In this document: positions 4,253 through 57,868 of the stretch, piece by piece
Layout of the letters: each line of letters starts with the position of its first letter
Position numbering within the stretch: the stretch's first letter is position 1
Source of the DNA: an uncultured Candidatus Peribacteria bacterium
Lineage (GTDB): Bacteria > Patescibacteriota > Gracilibacteria > Peribacterales > Peribacteraceae
Assembly: GCA_964628805.1 (NCBI GenBank)
Contig: CAZVOK010000004.1
Coordinates: 20,163 to 84,162, forward strand
Length of the DNA: 64,000 bases
Direction of reading: 5' to 3'
Position numbers and translations under genes: made by a program
The notes under the pieces: model-generated
The model's input: the letters and a program-made list of their open reading frames with translations, nothing else
Database searches by the model: none
Told to the model about the DNA's origin: nothing

Positions 4253-4333
4253 AGAATCGAAAAATGGCTTTGGCTAGACGCAACTTCGCCTCTCATTTTT
4301 TGTCATAACCTCCTAGCCCTAACCCCAACCCTA

Positions 4334-4411
4334 CCTGTCGGCCGTAGCTTCAATGAAATGATGTTTTAAAGCAGAAAATGCATACCGAAGCGTTTACGGA
4401 GCGAAGGCTGA
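4334..4411. repeat. copy d of the bipartite motif (CCTG-stem-GTAGCT...GAGCGAA-stem), reverse orientation relative to copies at 49.3-50.0 kb
   Basis: CCTG TCGGCC GTAGCTT ...45 nt... GAGCGAA GGCTGA. The closing 6-bp stem is complementary with one G-T pair. Confidence 0.45.
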
Positions 4412-10716: not shown

Positions 10717-10802
10717 GCCGAGGTGGCGAAATGGCAGACGCACCAGCCTTAGGAGCTGGCGGGAGCAATCCCATGGAGGTTCAAGTCCTCTCCTCGGCAC
10801 CA
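10717..10802 (+). tRNA. tRNA-Leu (anticodon UAG), CCA encoded
   Basis: Acceptor stem GCCGAGG/CCTCGGC, anticodon loop CTTAGGA, long variable arm, T-loop GGTTCAAGTCC, 3' ACCA. Confidence 0.9.
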
Positions 10803-11022
10803 TGAAGCAGACCTCGCTGCGGCTCAGTCGCTTCGTGGCACCGCCCCCCAGAGAACAAATATATCTGCTTCGTGTCCCGCAGTGACACGTTGGCTTAGAG
10901 TAATTTTCGACGTGAAAGTGCCTACTACGGAACTTTTACTCCCGCTTCGCTCTGGCTCAATGACTTCATTGCTCCTTAATCGAGATTTTGCAGAGCTATT
11001 TCCCAAGCCATACTAACCCGCT

Positions 11023-11220
11023 ATGTATTTCGTCTACATTCTGCGCAGCGACAAAGATGGCAATCTGCACACCGGATATACCACGAATATCCAACAGAGG
11101 ATGGCTGATCATGGTCGCGGCAGCTTAAATGCGCTGGCAAGAATCTGCGCTACCTGCGCGCGCGTCGCAGGTGCATCGATGTGCTCAGTGTCTCCCGTAA
11201 AAATAGGAAATTGTTCCTAG
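11023..11220 (+). pseudogene. GIY-YIG nuclease domain remnant (only about the first 30 codons look authentic)
   Basis: MYFVYILRSDKDGNLHTGYTTNIQQRMADH matches GIY-YIG N-termini. The rest of the ORF is the antisense of the SLH gene tail. Confidence 0.5.
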
Positions 11221-41644: not shown

Positions 41645-43387
41645 GTGAAACTCTTTTCTCCTTTGCGTCATCGGCGGGGGTTTCTGTTACTGGAAGCAAT
41701 TCTGGGCATTGCGCTGTTCGGACTCTTTTTAGGTGCGGCAGGTCTTACACTCTTGCGTGGTCAGGAAAGTACGCAAACAGCAGGCGACCGTGTGCGCGGA
41801 ACGGAATATTCTCAGCAGATGCTGGAGGCAGCACGCAGTATTCGGGACCAGAACTTTGCAGCTCTGACCGAAGGAGTACATGGAGTCCGCATCAACGGTA
41901 CTACCGGTAAATGGGAGCTCTACGGAACACAGGCGTCTTTTGGAAGCGGTTTTACCAGTACGCTCACTATCACCGCGTTGGATGCCAGCCGAGTATTGCT
42001 CTCGGCTAAAACTTCCTGGGGGCGCATTCCCAACCGTGCGCAAAGCGTGACGCTCCAGGGTATTCTCACTCACTGGTCATTTACGAAAACTGTAGGAAAC
42101 TGGAGCAGCTTGGTACTGAGTGGCAGCTACATCCACGGAACCGTTCCGCCTTTTACAGATGTTGTCACCTCGGGCACCACTGCATATGTCACCACGTCCA
42201 ACGCCACACAAGGATTGATGATTTTCAATGTGGCATCGGCACTTTCTATTTCCAATACTGCTACCGTCAATATCGGCGCCGGTGGTGTGGCAGCCACTAT
42301 TCGTGGGTACACACTGTATGTACTCACCACTCAGAGCGATGCGGAGATAAAAGCATATGACATCACTACCCCGACATCTCCGGTATTTCTTGCATCCTAT
42401 GATCTTCCCGGAAGCGGACAGGCCACAACGATTTCCGCTGAAGGAGATTACTTATATGTGGGAGCTACGGGATTATCGCAGAGAACCGTACAGGTAGCTC
42501 CTGTTCAAAACATTGCGAAGAGCCTCCCCTTTCCAGTATCGCTTTTTGGTGTTTCCAAGGCCGAAGCAAAAGCATACTGCTTGCACTTTGATGATGGCAC
42601 AGGAGAATATGACATGGGACCATGTAATTGTGCGCTATACCCTGAGGATTGCTCGGTGGACAGTTCAGAGGCTAGTTCAGAAGAAGCAGGAGCTACTCCT
42701 CCACCGTCTACAACAACAGTTACTCCTGCGCCTTCTACGCCGTCATCAAGCGTTTCCTCAGCTTCGTCCTCCAGCGGACCGTTTCCCGATGGAGATGACT
42801 TCTTCTCGTTCGATATCAGTGATCCCGCAGAAATTATTTTTTTAGATTCCGTGTACATAGGAGGAGTGAATGAATTGTTCCTCTCTGCTACCGATGCGTA
42901 CTTGGCTACTCCTTTGGATGCGACGGAGCTACGAATGGTGGATATTACCGACCCTGCAGATCTGACTTTGGCCGGAGGAGTGAATGTAACGGGTTCCACG
43001 GATGCCTTCACCGTTGCCCGGTCTGGCACTTCCACGCTCCTGGGGCTGCAGAAAAATGTGACCCAGGAAAATGCGCTCTTGGATATTCATTCCGCGTACG
43101 ACACATCTTCGTTCCGCACACCGCTCTTCTATGAATCCAGCGGAAGCACGCTTCGGGTGGCTCTGGATCCGTCCTCTTGTTATGGATTCCTTGCAACAGA
43201 CTGGAGGACACGTGCTGTGCAAATTATTAATGTGAATAGCCCAGCCCTACCGATGGTGTCTTCCTACACAGCACCGCTTGCCGGCGTATCGCTGTGGTAT
43301 GACGCAGCAAAAGATCGCTTGTACTTCATTACCAGCCGAGGCTTGTATTTGTTTACGCCCGGCGCCGGTGCCAATAACTGCTCATGA
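41645..43387 (+). CDS. prepilin-like protein fused to LVIVD-type beta-propeller-like repeats
   Basis: A GTG start gives VKLFSPLRHRRG|FLLLEAILGIALFG. Repeats of the form YVxT...GLxIFxV / IKAYDITTPTSP / LRMVDITDPADL and a Ser/Thr-Pro linker are present. Confidence 0.6.
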   Translation: MKLFSPLRHRRGFLLLEAILGIALFGLFLGAAGLTLLRGQESTQTAGDRVRGTEYSQQMLEAARSIRDQNFAALTEGVHGVRINGTTGKWELYGTQASFGSGFTSTLTITALDASRVLLSAKTSWGRIPNRAQSVTLQGILTHWSFTKTVGNWSSLVLSGSYIHGTVPPFTDVVTSGTTAYVTTSNATQGLMIFNVASALSISNTATVNIGAGGVAATIRGYTLYVLTTQSDAEIKAYDITTPTSPVFLASYDLPGSGQATTISAEGDYLYVGATGLSQRTVQVAPVQNIAKSLPFPVSLFGVSKAEAKAYCLHFDDGTGEYDMGPCNCALYPEDCSVDSSEASSEEAGATPPPSTTTVTPAPSTPSSSVSSASSSSGPFPDGDDFFSFDISDPAEIIFLDSVYIGGVNELFLSATDAYLATPLDATELRMVDITDPADLTLAGGVNVTGSTDAFTVARSGTSTLLGLQKNVTQENALLDIHSAYDTSSFRTPLFYESSGSTLRVALDPSSCYGFLATDWRTRAVQIINVNSPALPMVSSYTAPLAGVSLWYDAAKDRLYFITSRGLYLFTPGAGANNCS

Positions 43388-49006: not shown

Positions 49007-49027
49007 GGTTTTCGCAGTTAAGAAGAA

Positions 49028-49124
49028 AGTTCCAAGTTCCAAGTGCGAAGTTCCAAGTATAGTGCTTCTTTTTTTAAAGAAGAATTCCTTCGTTGGAACT
49101 TAGAACTTAGAACTTCGAACTTAA
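49028..49124. repeat. heptad-word hairpin element (AAGTTCC words)
   Basis: The left array 49028-49060 and right array 49091-49124 are complementary at about 26 of 31 positions. Confidence 0.7.
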
Positions 49125-49147
49125 AAAAGCGCCATAAGCGCTTTTTT
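49123..49147. terminator. bidirectional intrinsic terminator between the kinase gene and rnpB
   Basis: AAAAAAGCGC-CATAA-GCGCTTTTTT. Confidence 0.75.
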
Positions 49148-49150
49148 AGT

Positions 49151-49626
49151 CTGCTCCTCTGTACGCCGGATTCTGTCCTCTCCTCTCCTTGCGGAGATTC
49201 GAGTGGCAACCATCTCTCTGGGATAGTAGTTACCTACTACCTAAGACCGTGAGGTCATGCGGAGGGGTAGAGGGAGCAATGAAACCATTGCTGATTCCTT
49301 CCACCCAAATCCTCCTTGCACCGCCATAAGTTTGCCCTCCTTCGCTCCTTGCTTGCTTCGCTCGCAATGAGCTACGGAGGGCAGGCCTCCCTTAGCTCTT
49401 TGAGTGGAAGAAAGTAAGGAACGAAGGACCCGGTTCCCGGGCGTTTCAGCTCCACCTTCCTTTGGTCCCCTTGCGGAGATGAAGTCGTGCGGAGATCGTC
49501 TCTGTGGCACTGGTTCTACCGAGCCTTTCAAATATATGACCCGGTGACGGGCGTTACCCGCATGGCGTTCCTAAGGTGTCCGGACGTTCCTCCCACGCTA
49601 AGCGGGGGCGGTTGCCCAAGGAGCAG
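49151..49626 (-). ncRNA. rnpB: RNase P RNA (bacterial type A-like, about 476 nt, with extra insertions)
   Basis: On the minus strand: 5' P1 CTGCTCC pairs with 3' GGAGCAG. P4 strands are GGAGGAACGTCCGGAC and ACAGAATCCGGCGTA. GGGTAACGCCC and GTGCCACAGAGA are also present. Confidence 0.85.
49335..49385. repeat. copy a of the bipartite motif, embedded in rnpB
   Basis: CCCTCC TTCGCTC ... GAGCTAC GGAGGG CAGG (plus-strand reading). Confidence 0.5.
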
Positions 49627-49632
49627 ATCTGT

Positions 49633-49661
49633 ATTATCCCATTTTTCTCCTTTTTACACAA
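49633..49661 (-). promoter_or_regulatory. sigma70-like promoter for rnpB
   Basis: On the minus strand: TTGTGT, 17 nt, GATAAT, then 6 nt to the predicted 5' end of the RNA. Confidence 0.5.
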
Positions 49662-49740
49662 TAATGTCATGGACTTTTATAGGGGGGAATCGTTAGGATA
49701 CCTCGGCCGATAGTCTAGTGACTCACCGGTCGCCTTAGCT

Positions 49741-49772
49741 CCCGCCTTCGCTTGCGAGCTACGGTGGGCAGG
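49741..49772. repeat. copy b of the bipartite motif (minimal version)
   Basis: CCCGCC TTCGCT TGC GAGCTAC GGTGGG CAGG. Confidence 0.5.
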
Positions 49773-49815
49773 AGTGGTCACAATCGCTCGCTCAATCCTT
49801 CATTTTCAATCTAAA

Positions 49816-49890
49816 GCCGCCTTAGCTCAGTGGTAGAGCAACTCACTTGTAATGAGTAGGTCCGGGGTTCGAATCCCCGAGGCGGCTCCA
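49816..49890 (+). tRNA. tRNA-Thr (anticodon UGU), CCA encoded
   Basis: Acceptor GCCGCCT/AGGCGGC, D-arm TAGCTCAGTGGTAGAGC, anticodon loop CTTGTAA, T-loop GGTTCGAATCC. Confidence 0.92.
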
Positions 49891-49982
49891 GCCTTCGCTC
49901 CTGTGGAAGTACGCGCTTTTGTATGCTTGGTGTACTTTTTCCTCGTGTCAGGGAGGAGCTACGGCTGGCAGGCCAGAAGGGC
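49888..49982. repeat. copy c of the bipartite motif, starting in the CCA end of tRNA-Thr
   Basis: CCAGCC TTCGCTC ...66 nt... GAGCTAC GGCTGG CAGG. Confidence 0.5.
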
Positions 49983-50060
49983 GAAGATGGGCATATCTTT
50001 CCACAAAACATTCCCTCCAATTTTGATTGCCCGCGAGTGATGCAATACCGTCATGCATTT

Positions 50061-57607: not shown

Positions 57608-57868
57608 ATGGATTCAAGGCACACAATAGCGGCTTTGTATGGCTTGCCTGCCAATACTTCATTTGAAAAGGCAGACGATATGGTCCGGCTTCTTCAAAAG
57701 AAATTAAAATATGCGATTGAAACAGTGCGTATACAAATTGTAGAATTGGACATTTCCTATGTAATTATTACGTTGGAGGTAGACCAAGGAGTGAAGCACA
57801 TAGATGCAGTAGGCAACCATCTAATAGAAATGCTAGAAAAGGCCGCATGTGAAGTAAAAGTGCATTAA
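57608..57868 (+). CDS. hypothetical protein (low-GC island ORFan 1)
   Basis: 86-aa ORF in a visibly AT-rich segment, with no recognisable motif. Confidence 0.4.
   Translation: MDSRHTIAALYGLPANTSFEKADDMVRLLQKKLKYAIETVRIQIVELDISYVIITLEVDQGVKHIDAVGNHLIEMLEKAACEVKVH

Follow-up and report, generated by a model that had tools for sequence, protein, structure and literature searches.

Solo hairpins in a Peribacteria genome, one of them inside RNase P RNA, as probable derivatives of a GIY-YIG nuclease cassette linked to tRNA and tmRNA ends

In this study, we analyzed a 64-kb stretch of DNA from a Candidatus Peribacteria genome (64,000 nt, hereafter the window), in which one hairpin motif occurs four times: inside rnpB, the gene for RNase P RNA, on both sides of a tRNA-Thr gene, and upstream of nrdR. 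We consider it probable, on balance, that these four copies are solo derivatives, without an open reading frame (ORF), of a selfish cassette that carries a small GIY-YIG nuclease gene and is linked to the ends of tRNA genes. The home of the hairpin family would be the 3' end of tRNA and transfer-messenger RNA (tmRNA) genes, on which the cassette would ride, and the hairpin unit would be the first hairpin in the leader of the nuclease gene.

The copies lie where the original prediction had placed them. A script with the pattern of a 6-nt arm, TTCGCT, 0-110 nt, AGCTAC, and a complementary 6-nt arm gave exactly four matches in the window, each followed by CAGG. They are given here together with the tRNA gene that two of them flank.

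Copy a: 49335-49381, with CAGG to 49385, plus strand; class CCC, CCCTCC-TTCGCTCC...GAGCTAC-GGAGGG-CAGG.
Copy b: 49741-49768, with CAGG to 49772, plus strand; minimal class CCC unit, CCCGCC-TTCGCT-TGC-GAGCTAC-GGTGGG-CAGG.
Copy c: 49888-49968, with CAGGCCA to 49975, plus strand; class CCA, CCAGCC-TTCGCTCC, an insert of 55 nt, GGAGCTAC-GGCTGG-CAGGCCA.
Copy d: 4338-4411, with CAGG reaching 4334, minus strand; class variant, TCAGCC-TTCGCTCC, an insert, TTGAAGCTAC-GGCCGA-CAGG.
tRNA-Thr(TGT): 49816-49890, plus strand; its CCA is encoded and is, as predicted, the first three bases of copy c.

With its self-complementary insert, copy c has the canonical tRNA-attached form. Copy b lies 44 nt 5' of tRNA-Thr (48 nt when the CAGG tail is not counted), and copy d lies 17 nt upstream of the nrdR ATG. 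The stem of copy d (TCAGCC/GGCCGA) has one A.C mismatch, its tail reads CCTG at 4334-4337 of the plus strand, and the nrdR leader transcript would carry the GUAGCU...AGCGAA orientation. In a search with the covariance model R1, copies a and b scored 46.1 bits (E 1.6e-7) and 35.8 bits, respectively. The model search found no fifth copy in the window, and a candidate at 57640-57675 was dropped as being without both core halves. TTCGCT-N(0-30)-AGCTACGG was seen three times, including an alternative TTCGCT start inside copy a, against 0.01 expected from shuffles. In view of the shuffles and of hundreds of copies elsewhere, a chance origin of the motif was dropped as well; isolated half-motif matches at 42462 and 30666, both in coding DNA, were set aside as chance.

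Two pattern scans with one genome per species gave about 200 loci, and 154 units were found among 305 sequence sources from at least 12 phyla. The carriers are Acidobacteriota, Verrucomicrobiota, Kiritimatiellia, Omnitrophota, Cyanobacteriota, Margulisiibacteriota, Methylomirabilales, Alpha-, Beta-, Gamma-, and Deltaproteobacteria, and many Patescibacteria. Therefore, the unit is not private to this genome of the candidate phyla radiation (CPR). It has a 6-bp outer stem CC(A/C)NCC/GGN(T/G)GG, a 3x3 internal loop TTC/TAC (GTA/GAA when read on the opposite strand), an inner stem GCTC/GAGC, a free, self-complementary apical part of 3-100 nt, and the tail CAGG(CCA). The first scan imposed the 3' half alone, and the 5' half was still CC-TTCGC in every true copy and TTCGCTC in most. 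Two classes can be told apart: class CCA (CCA-N-CC...GG-N-TGG-CAGG-CCA, n=84) and class CCC (CCC-N-CC...GG-N-GGG-CAGGC, n=50), the latter unattached to tRNAs in all but one unit. Compared with miniature inverted-repeat transposable elements (MITEs), the outer stem could count as terminal inverted repeats; behind the CAGG, CCA alone recurs (54 of the 84 class CCA units), and the remaining stem is not duplicated.

The unit is a real structured element with covarying helices. In 71 distinct units brought to a fixed length (outer stem, loop, and six inner-stem pairs, with the apex turned into a spacer), 93.8% of the cells are paired under a two-helix model versus 80.8% in shuffles (0/500), the covariation score is 0.293 versus 0.083, and six pairs are altered on both sides. 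When the partners were slid by 1-3 columns as a control, pairing was 24-47%. Covariation of the closing stem, which had been read from the four window copies, is strongly supported in the tRNA-attached class, where 73 of 84 units have a Watson-Crick pair at stem position 4 (about 31 expected), with G-C, T-A, A-T, and C-G all in use. In class CCC, to which copies a and b belong, it is weakly supported (26/50). An attempt to read the selected strand from the counts of A.C (16) and G.T (3) was abandoned, as the excess is due to the fixed A of the CCA; without the position constrained by CCA the counts are 10 and 5, which is not decisive for the strand.

As predicted, the element is apparently undescribed. 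In Rfam 15, the units gave no match at gathering thresholds, and under permissive settings copies b and c gave none at E<=10 and the canonical units of eight loci none at E<=1, the matches being limited to rnpB, tRNA, and tmRNA themselves. Searches of Rfam and the searchable literature gave no description of the hairpin, or of a cassette linked to the CCA of tRNA or tmRNA genes and made of a UPF0213 gene and a structured leader. The unit is also not an intrinsic terminator, since its tail is CAGG(CCA) and never a T-run. It behaves as a repeat: identical, tandem, inverted, or nested copies occur within genomes (L255, L229, L178, L207, L077, L041/L256, L080, L104; L numbers denote loci), and metagenome assemblies break at units. 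Peribacteria DNA chosen without regard to the motif (524 kb) gave seven model matches, about one per 75 kb; together with the four in the window, these suggest tens, not hundreds, of units per Peribacteria genome of about 1 Mb. Plasmids had no copies, and the four matches in viral contigs all lacked the CAGG tail. The apical inserts of L001, L020, L089, and L094, from Alphaproteobacteria and others, have in common a module GAAGGCTGCCGCGCCGGAGCCC-AAAGG-GCGAAGGCGGGCC with the layout stem-GAA-stem-loop-stem-GAA-stem, which suggests that interchangeable hairpin modules with GAA loops form a family.

Fifty-five of the 154 units begin exactly in the encoded CCA of a tRNA gene (about 18 identities) or a tmRNA gene (L080, L276, L285), and each of them has the orientation of that gene. 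They comprise 54 class CCA units and the single attached CCC-stem unit; several further class CCA units follow truncated or uncalled tRNA-like 3' ends. An element so placed might serve the host, as a hairpin in the 3' trailer of tRNA and tmRNA that aids processing, termination, or stability and sequesters the CCA until cleavage. Selection would then keep the hairpin, solo units would be the functional norm, and the GIY-YIG gene would exploit a highly transcribed and well-processed site. We regard such a host module as the main rival to a selfish cassette, unlikely but of real weight. The strict CCA fusion and fixed orientation at 55 genes fit it, as do the clean compensatory covariation, the common 3' maturation of tRNA and tmRNA, C(UUCG)G loops in the tRNA-sense orientation (L024, L050), and the occurrence of units with free apical parts at the same tRNA-Arg in nine Acidobacteriota species. 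However, exonucleolytic 3' trimming would be hindered, not helped, by a stable hairpin that begins at the CCA, no U-tract for termination is present, and the sample was ascertained on the exact core. The units are sporadic, only one of the window's two tRNAs carrying one, and they occur nested, tandem, and inverted and in either transcript orientation, the transcripts of rnpB and of the nrdR leader holding the reverse complement. As a separate observation, a unit in L107 (7563-7600) directly adjoins a tRNA-Gly of the opposite strand, at its 5' end. The CCCGCC arm of the unit is complementary to G-1 and positions 1-5 of this tRNA, so that the tRNA-Gly leader can pair with the tRNA's own 5' end.

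The link to a nuclease came from the neighbouring genes. When all ORFs of 130 unit-centred loci were clustered, the recurring protein was one small GIY-YIG protein, at a median distance of 0; no transposase or integrase recurs among them. The protein, about 80 aa long, consists of a stand-alone GIY-YIG domain (PF01541, E 1e-9 to 1e-17) of the UPF0213/YhbQ type, with the UPF0213 proteins 1ZG2 and 1YWL as its closest solved structures; no NCBIfam model names it. In L024, L048, L060, L080, L104, L214, L215, L226, and L276, its ORF lies on the strand of a tRNA- or tmRNA-attached unit and starts 25-125 nt downstream of it. In L231 the ORF comes 332 nt after the unit, and L255 has a truncated fragment 115 nt after it. 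The cassette proteins are 44-76% identical across phyla and conserve Tyr5, Tyr17, Gly19, Arg27, His31, Asn32, and Glu63, and this retention of catalytic residues has the pattern of an active enzyme. A GIY-YIG protein encoded after nrdR in L164 was set aside as a different subfamily without a tRNA link.

The decisive control for this link is a sample of homologues collected without the DNA motif. Of these, 24 have 150 nt or more of sequence upstream, and in 21 of the 24 the gene comes directly after a tRNA (His, Val, Ala, Lys, Ser, Leu) or tmRNA gene with a CCA that continues into CCANCC-TTCGC; together with the nine loci found by the motif, the gene thus occupies a fixed site beside a conserved host gene, right after the CCA. 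Some of these protein-first loci have the canonical TTCGCTC...GAGCTAC hairpin, and most of the tRNA-Ala group have a TTC/TTC loop variant.

The order within the cassette is the tRNA or tmRNA CCA fused to unit 1, CAGGCC with a short spacer, an anti-arm, a second hairpin, and the ORF, the structured leader being 100-150 nt long. The anti-arm, GCGAA-GGN-TG(G), is a perfect complement of the 5' arm of unit 1 and follows its variable base. It was found in 19 of the 55 tRNA-attached units (0.5 expected), namely at all eight ORF-bearing loci and at 11 ORF-less ones. Hairpin 2 is designed like unit 1 (stem, G(A/U)A, GC(U)C...G(A)GC, GAA, stem), and its purine arm (GCGAAGGAGGG or GCGAAGGGGGA), which is Shine-Dalgarno-like, has its end 10-14 nt ahead of the ATG. 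Two mutually exclusive partners are thus available to the unit's 5' arm, its own 3' arm or the anti-arm; as the TTC of the internal loop is needed for a perfect alternative helix with GAA, the conserved mismatch has a rationale. From this design, we infer that the two pairings probably gate translation of the nuclease, its gene probably being transcribed together with the tRNA. Propagation of the element probably also requires the hairpin, with a nuclease that would act on it and drive spread. A second copy of the leader follows the stop codon in four of 21 cassettes (L215, L313, L314, L080), and an origin of solo units by deletion between flanking repeats, as for solo long terminal repeats, was dropped in view of this low count. 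Side by side with these, tandem second GIY-YIG fragments or repeated leaders occur after cassettes in L080 (5628-5732), L276 (3048-3242), L313, and L315, the whole leader of L313 being tandemly repeated (137 nt, 94% identity); local amplification thus occurs.

The same survey bears on the possibility that the unit is a repetitive extragenic palindromic (REP) sequence of the GTAG type, that is, a non-autonomous single-stranded DNA hairpin mobilised in trans by a REP-associated tyrosine transposase (RAYT, or TnpA_REP, an HUH Y1 transposase). The RAYT binds GTAG and the hairpin and cuts at a nearby CT or CA dinucleotide (PMC8266576). GTAG REPs are found across many phyla; their self-complementary loops vary and are sometimes long, their dimers occur in either orientation, and outer palindromes can enclose them (PMC3733652). 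The opposite strand of every unit reads CCTG-stem-GTAG-CTC(palindrome)GAG-CGAA-stem, in which the GTAG directly 5' of a palindrome and the conserved upstream CT within CCTG fit the cutting rule (PMC8266576). The loop variability, dimers, and nesting described for GTAG REPs (PMC3733652) resemble those of our units, and inverted pairs (L229) and mosaics (L004, L080, L104) resemble bacterial interspersed mosaic elements (BIMEs) and REP doublets forming hairpins (REPINs). However, no Y1- or RAYT-like protein recurs in the 130 unit-centred loci, in which the GIY-YIG protein does; as REPs flank their RAYT gene, some should have been caught. None was present either among the 25 listed of the 68 families matched for the window. 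In addition, the GTAG, which abuts the inner palindrome on one strand, is enclosed by the outer stem and faces the conserved CGAA, so that it appears to be part of a paired structure rather than an unpaired terminal tag. About one unit per 75 kb appears low against typical REPs, which often exceed 100 per genome, the identical core in at least 12 phyla is unlike the species-specific REPs, and the CCA fusion has no counterpart in REP biology. We therefore consider a GTAG REP improbable.

In order to compare the window with its relatives, we used homologues of the neighbouring endonuclease V (EndoV), which led to three syntenic Peribacteria loci (L305, L308, and L310), all with rnpB divergent from tRNA-Thr. 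A first genome scan based on EndoV had given distant Bacteroidota only, and a metagenome scan for the rnpB flank no relatives. L305 (EndoV identity 79%) can be aligned with the window base by base across rnpB and tRNA-Thr. The features of rnpB that matter here are as follows.

rnpB, bacterial type A RNase P RNA: 49627..49146, minus strand, 482 nt; RF00010, 143 bits.
Composite palindrome in place of the 26-nt P14 hairpin: 49337..49427, minus strand, 91 nt; copy a, CAGG, and a degenerate half-unit (CCTCCC-TTAGCTC...).

Copy a was correctly predicted to lie within rnpB. The strand, however, needs a correction: rnpB is on the minus strand, so that RNase P RNA holds the reverse complement (CCUG-CCCUCC-GUAGCUC...GAGCGAA-GGAGGG). 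Aligned to RF00010 with cmscan, the insertion (69 nt) falls in P14, a helix that normally docks through its loop on P8. In the sister lineage L305, rnpB is 376 nt long and has a 26-nt P14 where the window has 91 nt, the flanks being identical up to ...AAGTTTGCC (49336). The 91-nt block is also missing from L308 and L310, whose P14 is short. Since the relatives have a short P14 where the window has its block, between flanks identical to those of L305, the motif is an insertion into RNase P RNA, as had been proposed, and not a normal conserved helix. It follows GCC, with no clear target-site duplication.

The 91-nt block folds as one long, irregular P14 extension (z = -3.1), with the base helix CCUUCGUUCC/GGAGCGAAGG containing one G.U on the rnpB strand and with the junction GGGAGG-CCUG-CCCUCC between copy a and the half-unit at its apex; the hairpin first proposed is a competing and less favoured fold in the transcript. 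Copy a would thus have landed in the P14 apex, where it probably does no more than lengthen a peripheral helix that is transcribed with the ribozyme and tolerated. Window DNA was also found in wastewater metagenomes and metatranscriptomes. Metatranscriptome contigs (Logan) cover 49307-49575 without difference, and nothing outside rnpB is covered. A second type of contig shows no difference up to 49336 and continues with 57 different letters, the very length of the L305 type, so both rnpB alleles are expressed in the same plants.

Several other features of this gene and its surroundings were seen. Compared with L305, the window rnpB is also longer by 26 nt in P12 (a duplication of TGCGGAGAT) and by 10 nt close to the 3' end, and P14 is therefore not its sole expanded helix. 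CCTTGCGGAGAT occurs three times on the minus strand (49187-49198, 49467-49481, 49487-49499), giving GNRA hairpins of the CUCC-GCAA-GGAG type in the RNA. At 49580-49594, in the P4 region, the window, L305, L308, and L310 all read GGAGGAACGUCCGG where the bacterial consensus is GAGGAAAGUCCGG, an A-to-C change in a universally conserved P4 strand. Just before the terminator hairpin on the rnpB side, 49020-49125 is a long inverted repeat of heptamers ((A)AGTTCC three times ... GGAACTT/AGAACTT four times) with a T/A-rich centre. In four DNA metagenomes it is matched by many contigs at about 90%, at a depth of 20-39 versus 3-5 in the flanks, which marks it as a multi-copy repeat. GAACTT-type repeats also flank units in the Verrucomicrobia loci L041, L256, and L268.

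Around tRNA-Thr, the two copies have different histories among the relatives. Copy b has an orthologue in L305 (12971-12998, minus strand), where the outer stem is CCCACC/GGTGGG, with A-T in place of G.T, and the inner stem is GCC/GGC in place of GCT/AGC, a compensatory change. A duplicated piece of the tRNA-Thr 5' end surrounds the copy in the window and in L305 alike, with nt 1-13 before it and nt 14-19 after it. In the window, the fragment before copy b is GTCGCCTTAGCTC (49729-49741) and the one after it AGTGGT (49773-49778); the 13-nt fragment is identical to the tRNA-Thr 5' end at 13/13 positions in L305 and at 12/13 in the window. The arrangement looks like an insertion of copy b into a partial tRNA-Thr duplicate, between its positions 13 and 14. 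The persistence of copy b in a tRNA-Thr leader region, with compensatory changes between sister lineages, is a further point for a host module, and it is this and the Acidobacteriota tRNA-Arg recurrence that give that rival its weight.

Unit c, on the other hand, is absent from L305, which has an unrelated trailer after an identical tRNA-Thr; none of four tRNAs in 80 unrelated Peribacteria loci carries a unit, and both findings speak against a host module. A tRNA-Thr with a unit of short apex, arranged as copy c, is present in the Peregrinibacteria metagenome-assembled genome (MAG) L253. Units a and c, therefore, are polymorphic in presence and absence between the window and L305 beside identical RNA genes; the polymorphic units are ORF-less ones only. 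Downstream of copy c, no ORF was found, and one degenerate feature remains.

Anti-arm remnant GGGCGAAGATGGG: 49979-49991, plus strand, downstream of copy c.

The original prediction had also suggested that the unit is a mini-module, derived from a tRNA or mimicking one (acceptor stem plus D-arm) and capable of sitting inside RNase P RNA, a reading under which it would have its own function. The GTAG-strand core, CC-GUAGCUC...GAGCG, does match positions 7-13 and 22-26 of common bacterial tRNAs, tRNA-Thr 5' pieces of 13 nt and 6 nt flank copy b, and a tRNA-5'-like stretch follows copy a. However, the stretch resembling U8-G26 lies on the strand opposite to the transcribed one at tRNA genes. Neither ARAGORN nor the tRNA and tRNA-like models of the RF00005 clan recognise the unit, which has no T-arm or anticodon arm and whose 'D-loop' consists of arbitrary stem extensions. 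Within rnpB, a plain extension of P14 is favoured over the unit fold, and the insertion is missing from three related, otherwise conserved rnpB genes. This reading is largely refuted, and we regard it as very improbable. What stands of the tRNA connection is positional, the fusion to the 3' CCA of tRNA and tmRNA genes, so that the earlier interpretation is partly supported: a real, inserted, and uncatalogued motif, with no support for tRNA mimicry or for a role in RNase P.

Window NrdR is 76-89% identical to NrdR of 80 Candidatus Peribacteria and Peregrinibacteria MAGs. Copy d has no counterpart upstream of nrdR at any of 80 Peribacteria nrdR loci, where these upstream regions are too diverged to align with the site. 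Telomere-like short repeats (CCCTAAC/CCCCAAC) in the intergenic stretch 4311-4337 directly abut copy d, and such repeats were also seen upstream of nrdR in the Peribacteria locus L129 and before a unit in L290 (GGATTAGGATTAGGGTTCGGGTT). The genes of the window are otherwise of the housekeeping kind, such as those for DnaE, AspRS, NusA, SmpB, RNase J, DnaN, and type IV pilus proteins.

A trace of the nuclease gene itself lies at the other tRNA gene of the window.

tRNA-Leu: 10717-10802; the start of its trailer is ordinary, with no unit.
Isolated half-unit CCCGC-TTCGCTC: 10941-10952, plus strand, in the tRNA-Leu trailer.
Truncated GIY-YIG (UPF0213-type) pseudogene: 11023-11220, plus strand, about 220 nt downstream of tRNA-Leu.

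The N-terminal 35 or so residues of the pseudogene (MYFVYILRSDKDGNLHTGYTTNIQQRMADHGRG) match the cassette nucleases (tblastn 36.6 bits, BLASTP E 1e-10), and the C-terminal half with the catalytic Glu is lost. A word-index search with a 52-aa fragment from the window found nothing. The half-unit and the truncated gene indicate that this lineage has carried the cassette.

Taken together, the nuclease genes of the cassette appear to have decayed in this Peribacteria genome. Copy c would be an ORF-less leader remnant at tRNA-Thr, the tRNA-Leu trailer would keep a half-unit and a truncated nuclease gene, and copies a, b, and d would be REP- or MITE-like solo derivatives that landed elsewhere. We favour a selfish, decaying, and occasionally spreading element over a dedicated host RNA because of the nuclease association, the gain and loss, the repeat copies, and the assembly breaks.

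Several points weigh against this reading. About 45 of the 55 tRNA-attached units have no nearby ORF, and neither the window nor the surroundings of any Peribacteria unit hold an intact GIY-YIG gene, so that for this genome the nuclease link consists of the 35-residue remnant and of other phyla. With a catalytic domain of 80 aa and no DNA-binding domain, the protein differs from classical homing endonucleases. Neither a cleavage site nor a target-site duplication nor a defined right end was found, the leader being repeated after the ORF in only the 4 of 21 cassettes mentioned, and the reading does not account for the arrival of solo units at sites other than tRNA genes (rnpB, upstream of nrdR). 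Both scans required the exact core letters, and core conservation is thus not readable from these samples. Finally, the compensatory conservation of copy b and the recurrence at tRNA-Arg in the nine Acidobacteriota species could mean a host function.

A wider proposal, which we offer tentatively and hold to be doubtful, is that the unit might be the recognition structure of a structure-specific mini GIY-YIG nuclease. The cassettes would then form a new class of selfish elements at tRNA and tmRNA CCA ends across most of the bacterial tree, with solo hairpins as non-autonomous offspring, a GIY-YIG counterpart of REP and RAYT that could invade stable-RNA genes such as rnpB, and the leader pairings would tie translation of the nuclease to tRNA-precursor processing.

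If a nuclease cassette of this kind is indeed the source of the hairpins, the common but overlooked small GIY-YIG proteins of the UPF0213/YhbQ type would gain a genomic logic, a place at tRNA and tmRNA CCA ends behind a structured leader, and would provide a case in which the coupling of nuclease expression to the transcription and processing of tRNA can be tested. For annotation, a conserved, covarying hairpin of about 40 nt in at least 12 phyla would gain a name and a model, and odd 3' extensions of tRNA and tmRNA genes in MAGs would be explained. As for RNase P, two co-occurring Peribacteria lineages that express rnpB with and without the 91-nt P14 replacement provide a natural experiment.

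Among known systems, phage T4 SegB is encoded by a free-standing GIY-YIG homing endonuclease gene in a tRNA gene cluster. SegB is treated in PMC13096335 as well. The cassette resembles such genes in being a small, intergenic nuclease gene beside conserved tRNA genes, patchy and polymorphic among relatives, with copies that readily decay to pseudogenes. In contrast to SegB-type genes, its product is a catalytic domain of about 80 aa alone, without a DNA-binding domain; it is chromosomal, occurs in at least 12 bacterial phyla, and accepts any tRNA identity as well as tmRNA. Its junction lies exactly at the CCA, and it has a conserved multi-hairpin leader that is also found as solo copies.

For the copy in rnpB, short tandem repeats in helix P12 of cyanobacterial RNase P RNA, reportedly described by Vioque in 1997, offer a parallel, as do the Rickettsia palindromic elements (mentioned in PMC3733652): in each case a repeat sits in a peripheral helix of a stable RNA, is co-transcribed with it, and is tolerated as a helix extension. 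The element found here is a different one, however, and so are the helix (P14) and the lineage (CPR/Peribacteria). The nuclease is the same stand-alone GIY-YIG domain, of the same size, as the UPF0213/YhbQ/COG2827 proteins (1ZG2, 1YWL), three copies of COG2827 having been noted in Caulobacter (PMC1839093). UPF0213/YhbQ proteins are usually discussed as possible repair nucleases, and the searchable literature gave no account of a systematic link between them and tRNA or tmRNA CCA ends, nor of a conserved structured leader.

The hairpins themselves are closest in appearance to the REP/BIME/REPIN sequences and their RAYTs (PMC3733652, PMC8266576, PMC2817692). Both are imperfect palindromes of 30-50 bp with GTAG next to the stem, a variable apex, and covarying stems; both occur as single, tandem, or inverted copies, can be inserted within genes, and presumably combine a single-copy enzyme gene with many non-autonomous hairpins. 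However, the enzyme here is a GIY-YIG and not an HUH-Y1 protein, the core is conserved across phyla rather than species-specific, and the units are anchored to the CCA of tRNA and tmRNA genes, are apparently low in copy number, and have the GTAG internally, opposite a conserved CGAA. The system is thus a combination of two known themes, free-standing GIY-YIG genes beside conserved genes and REP-like palindromic repeats.

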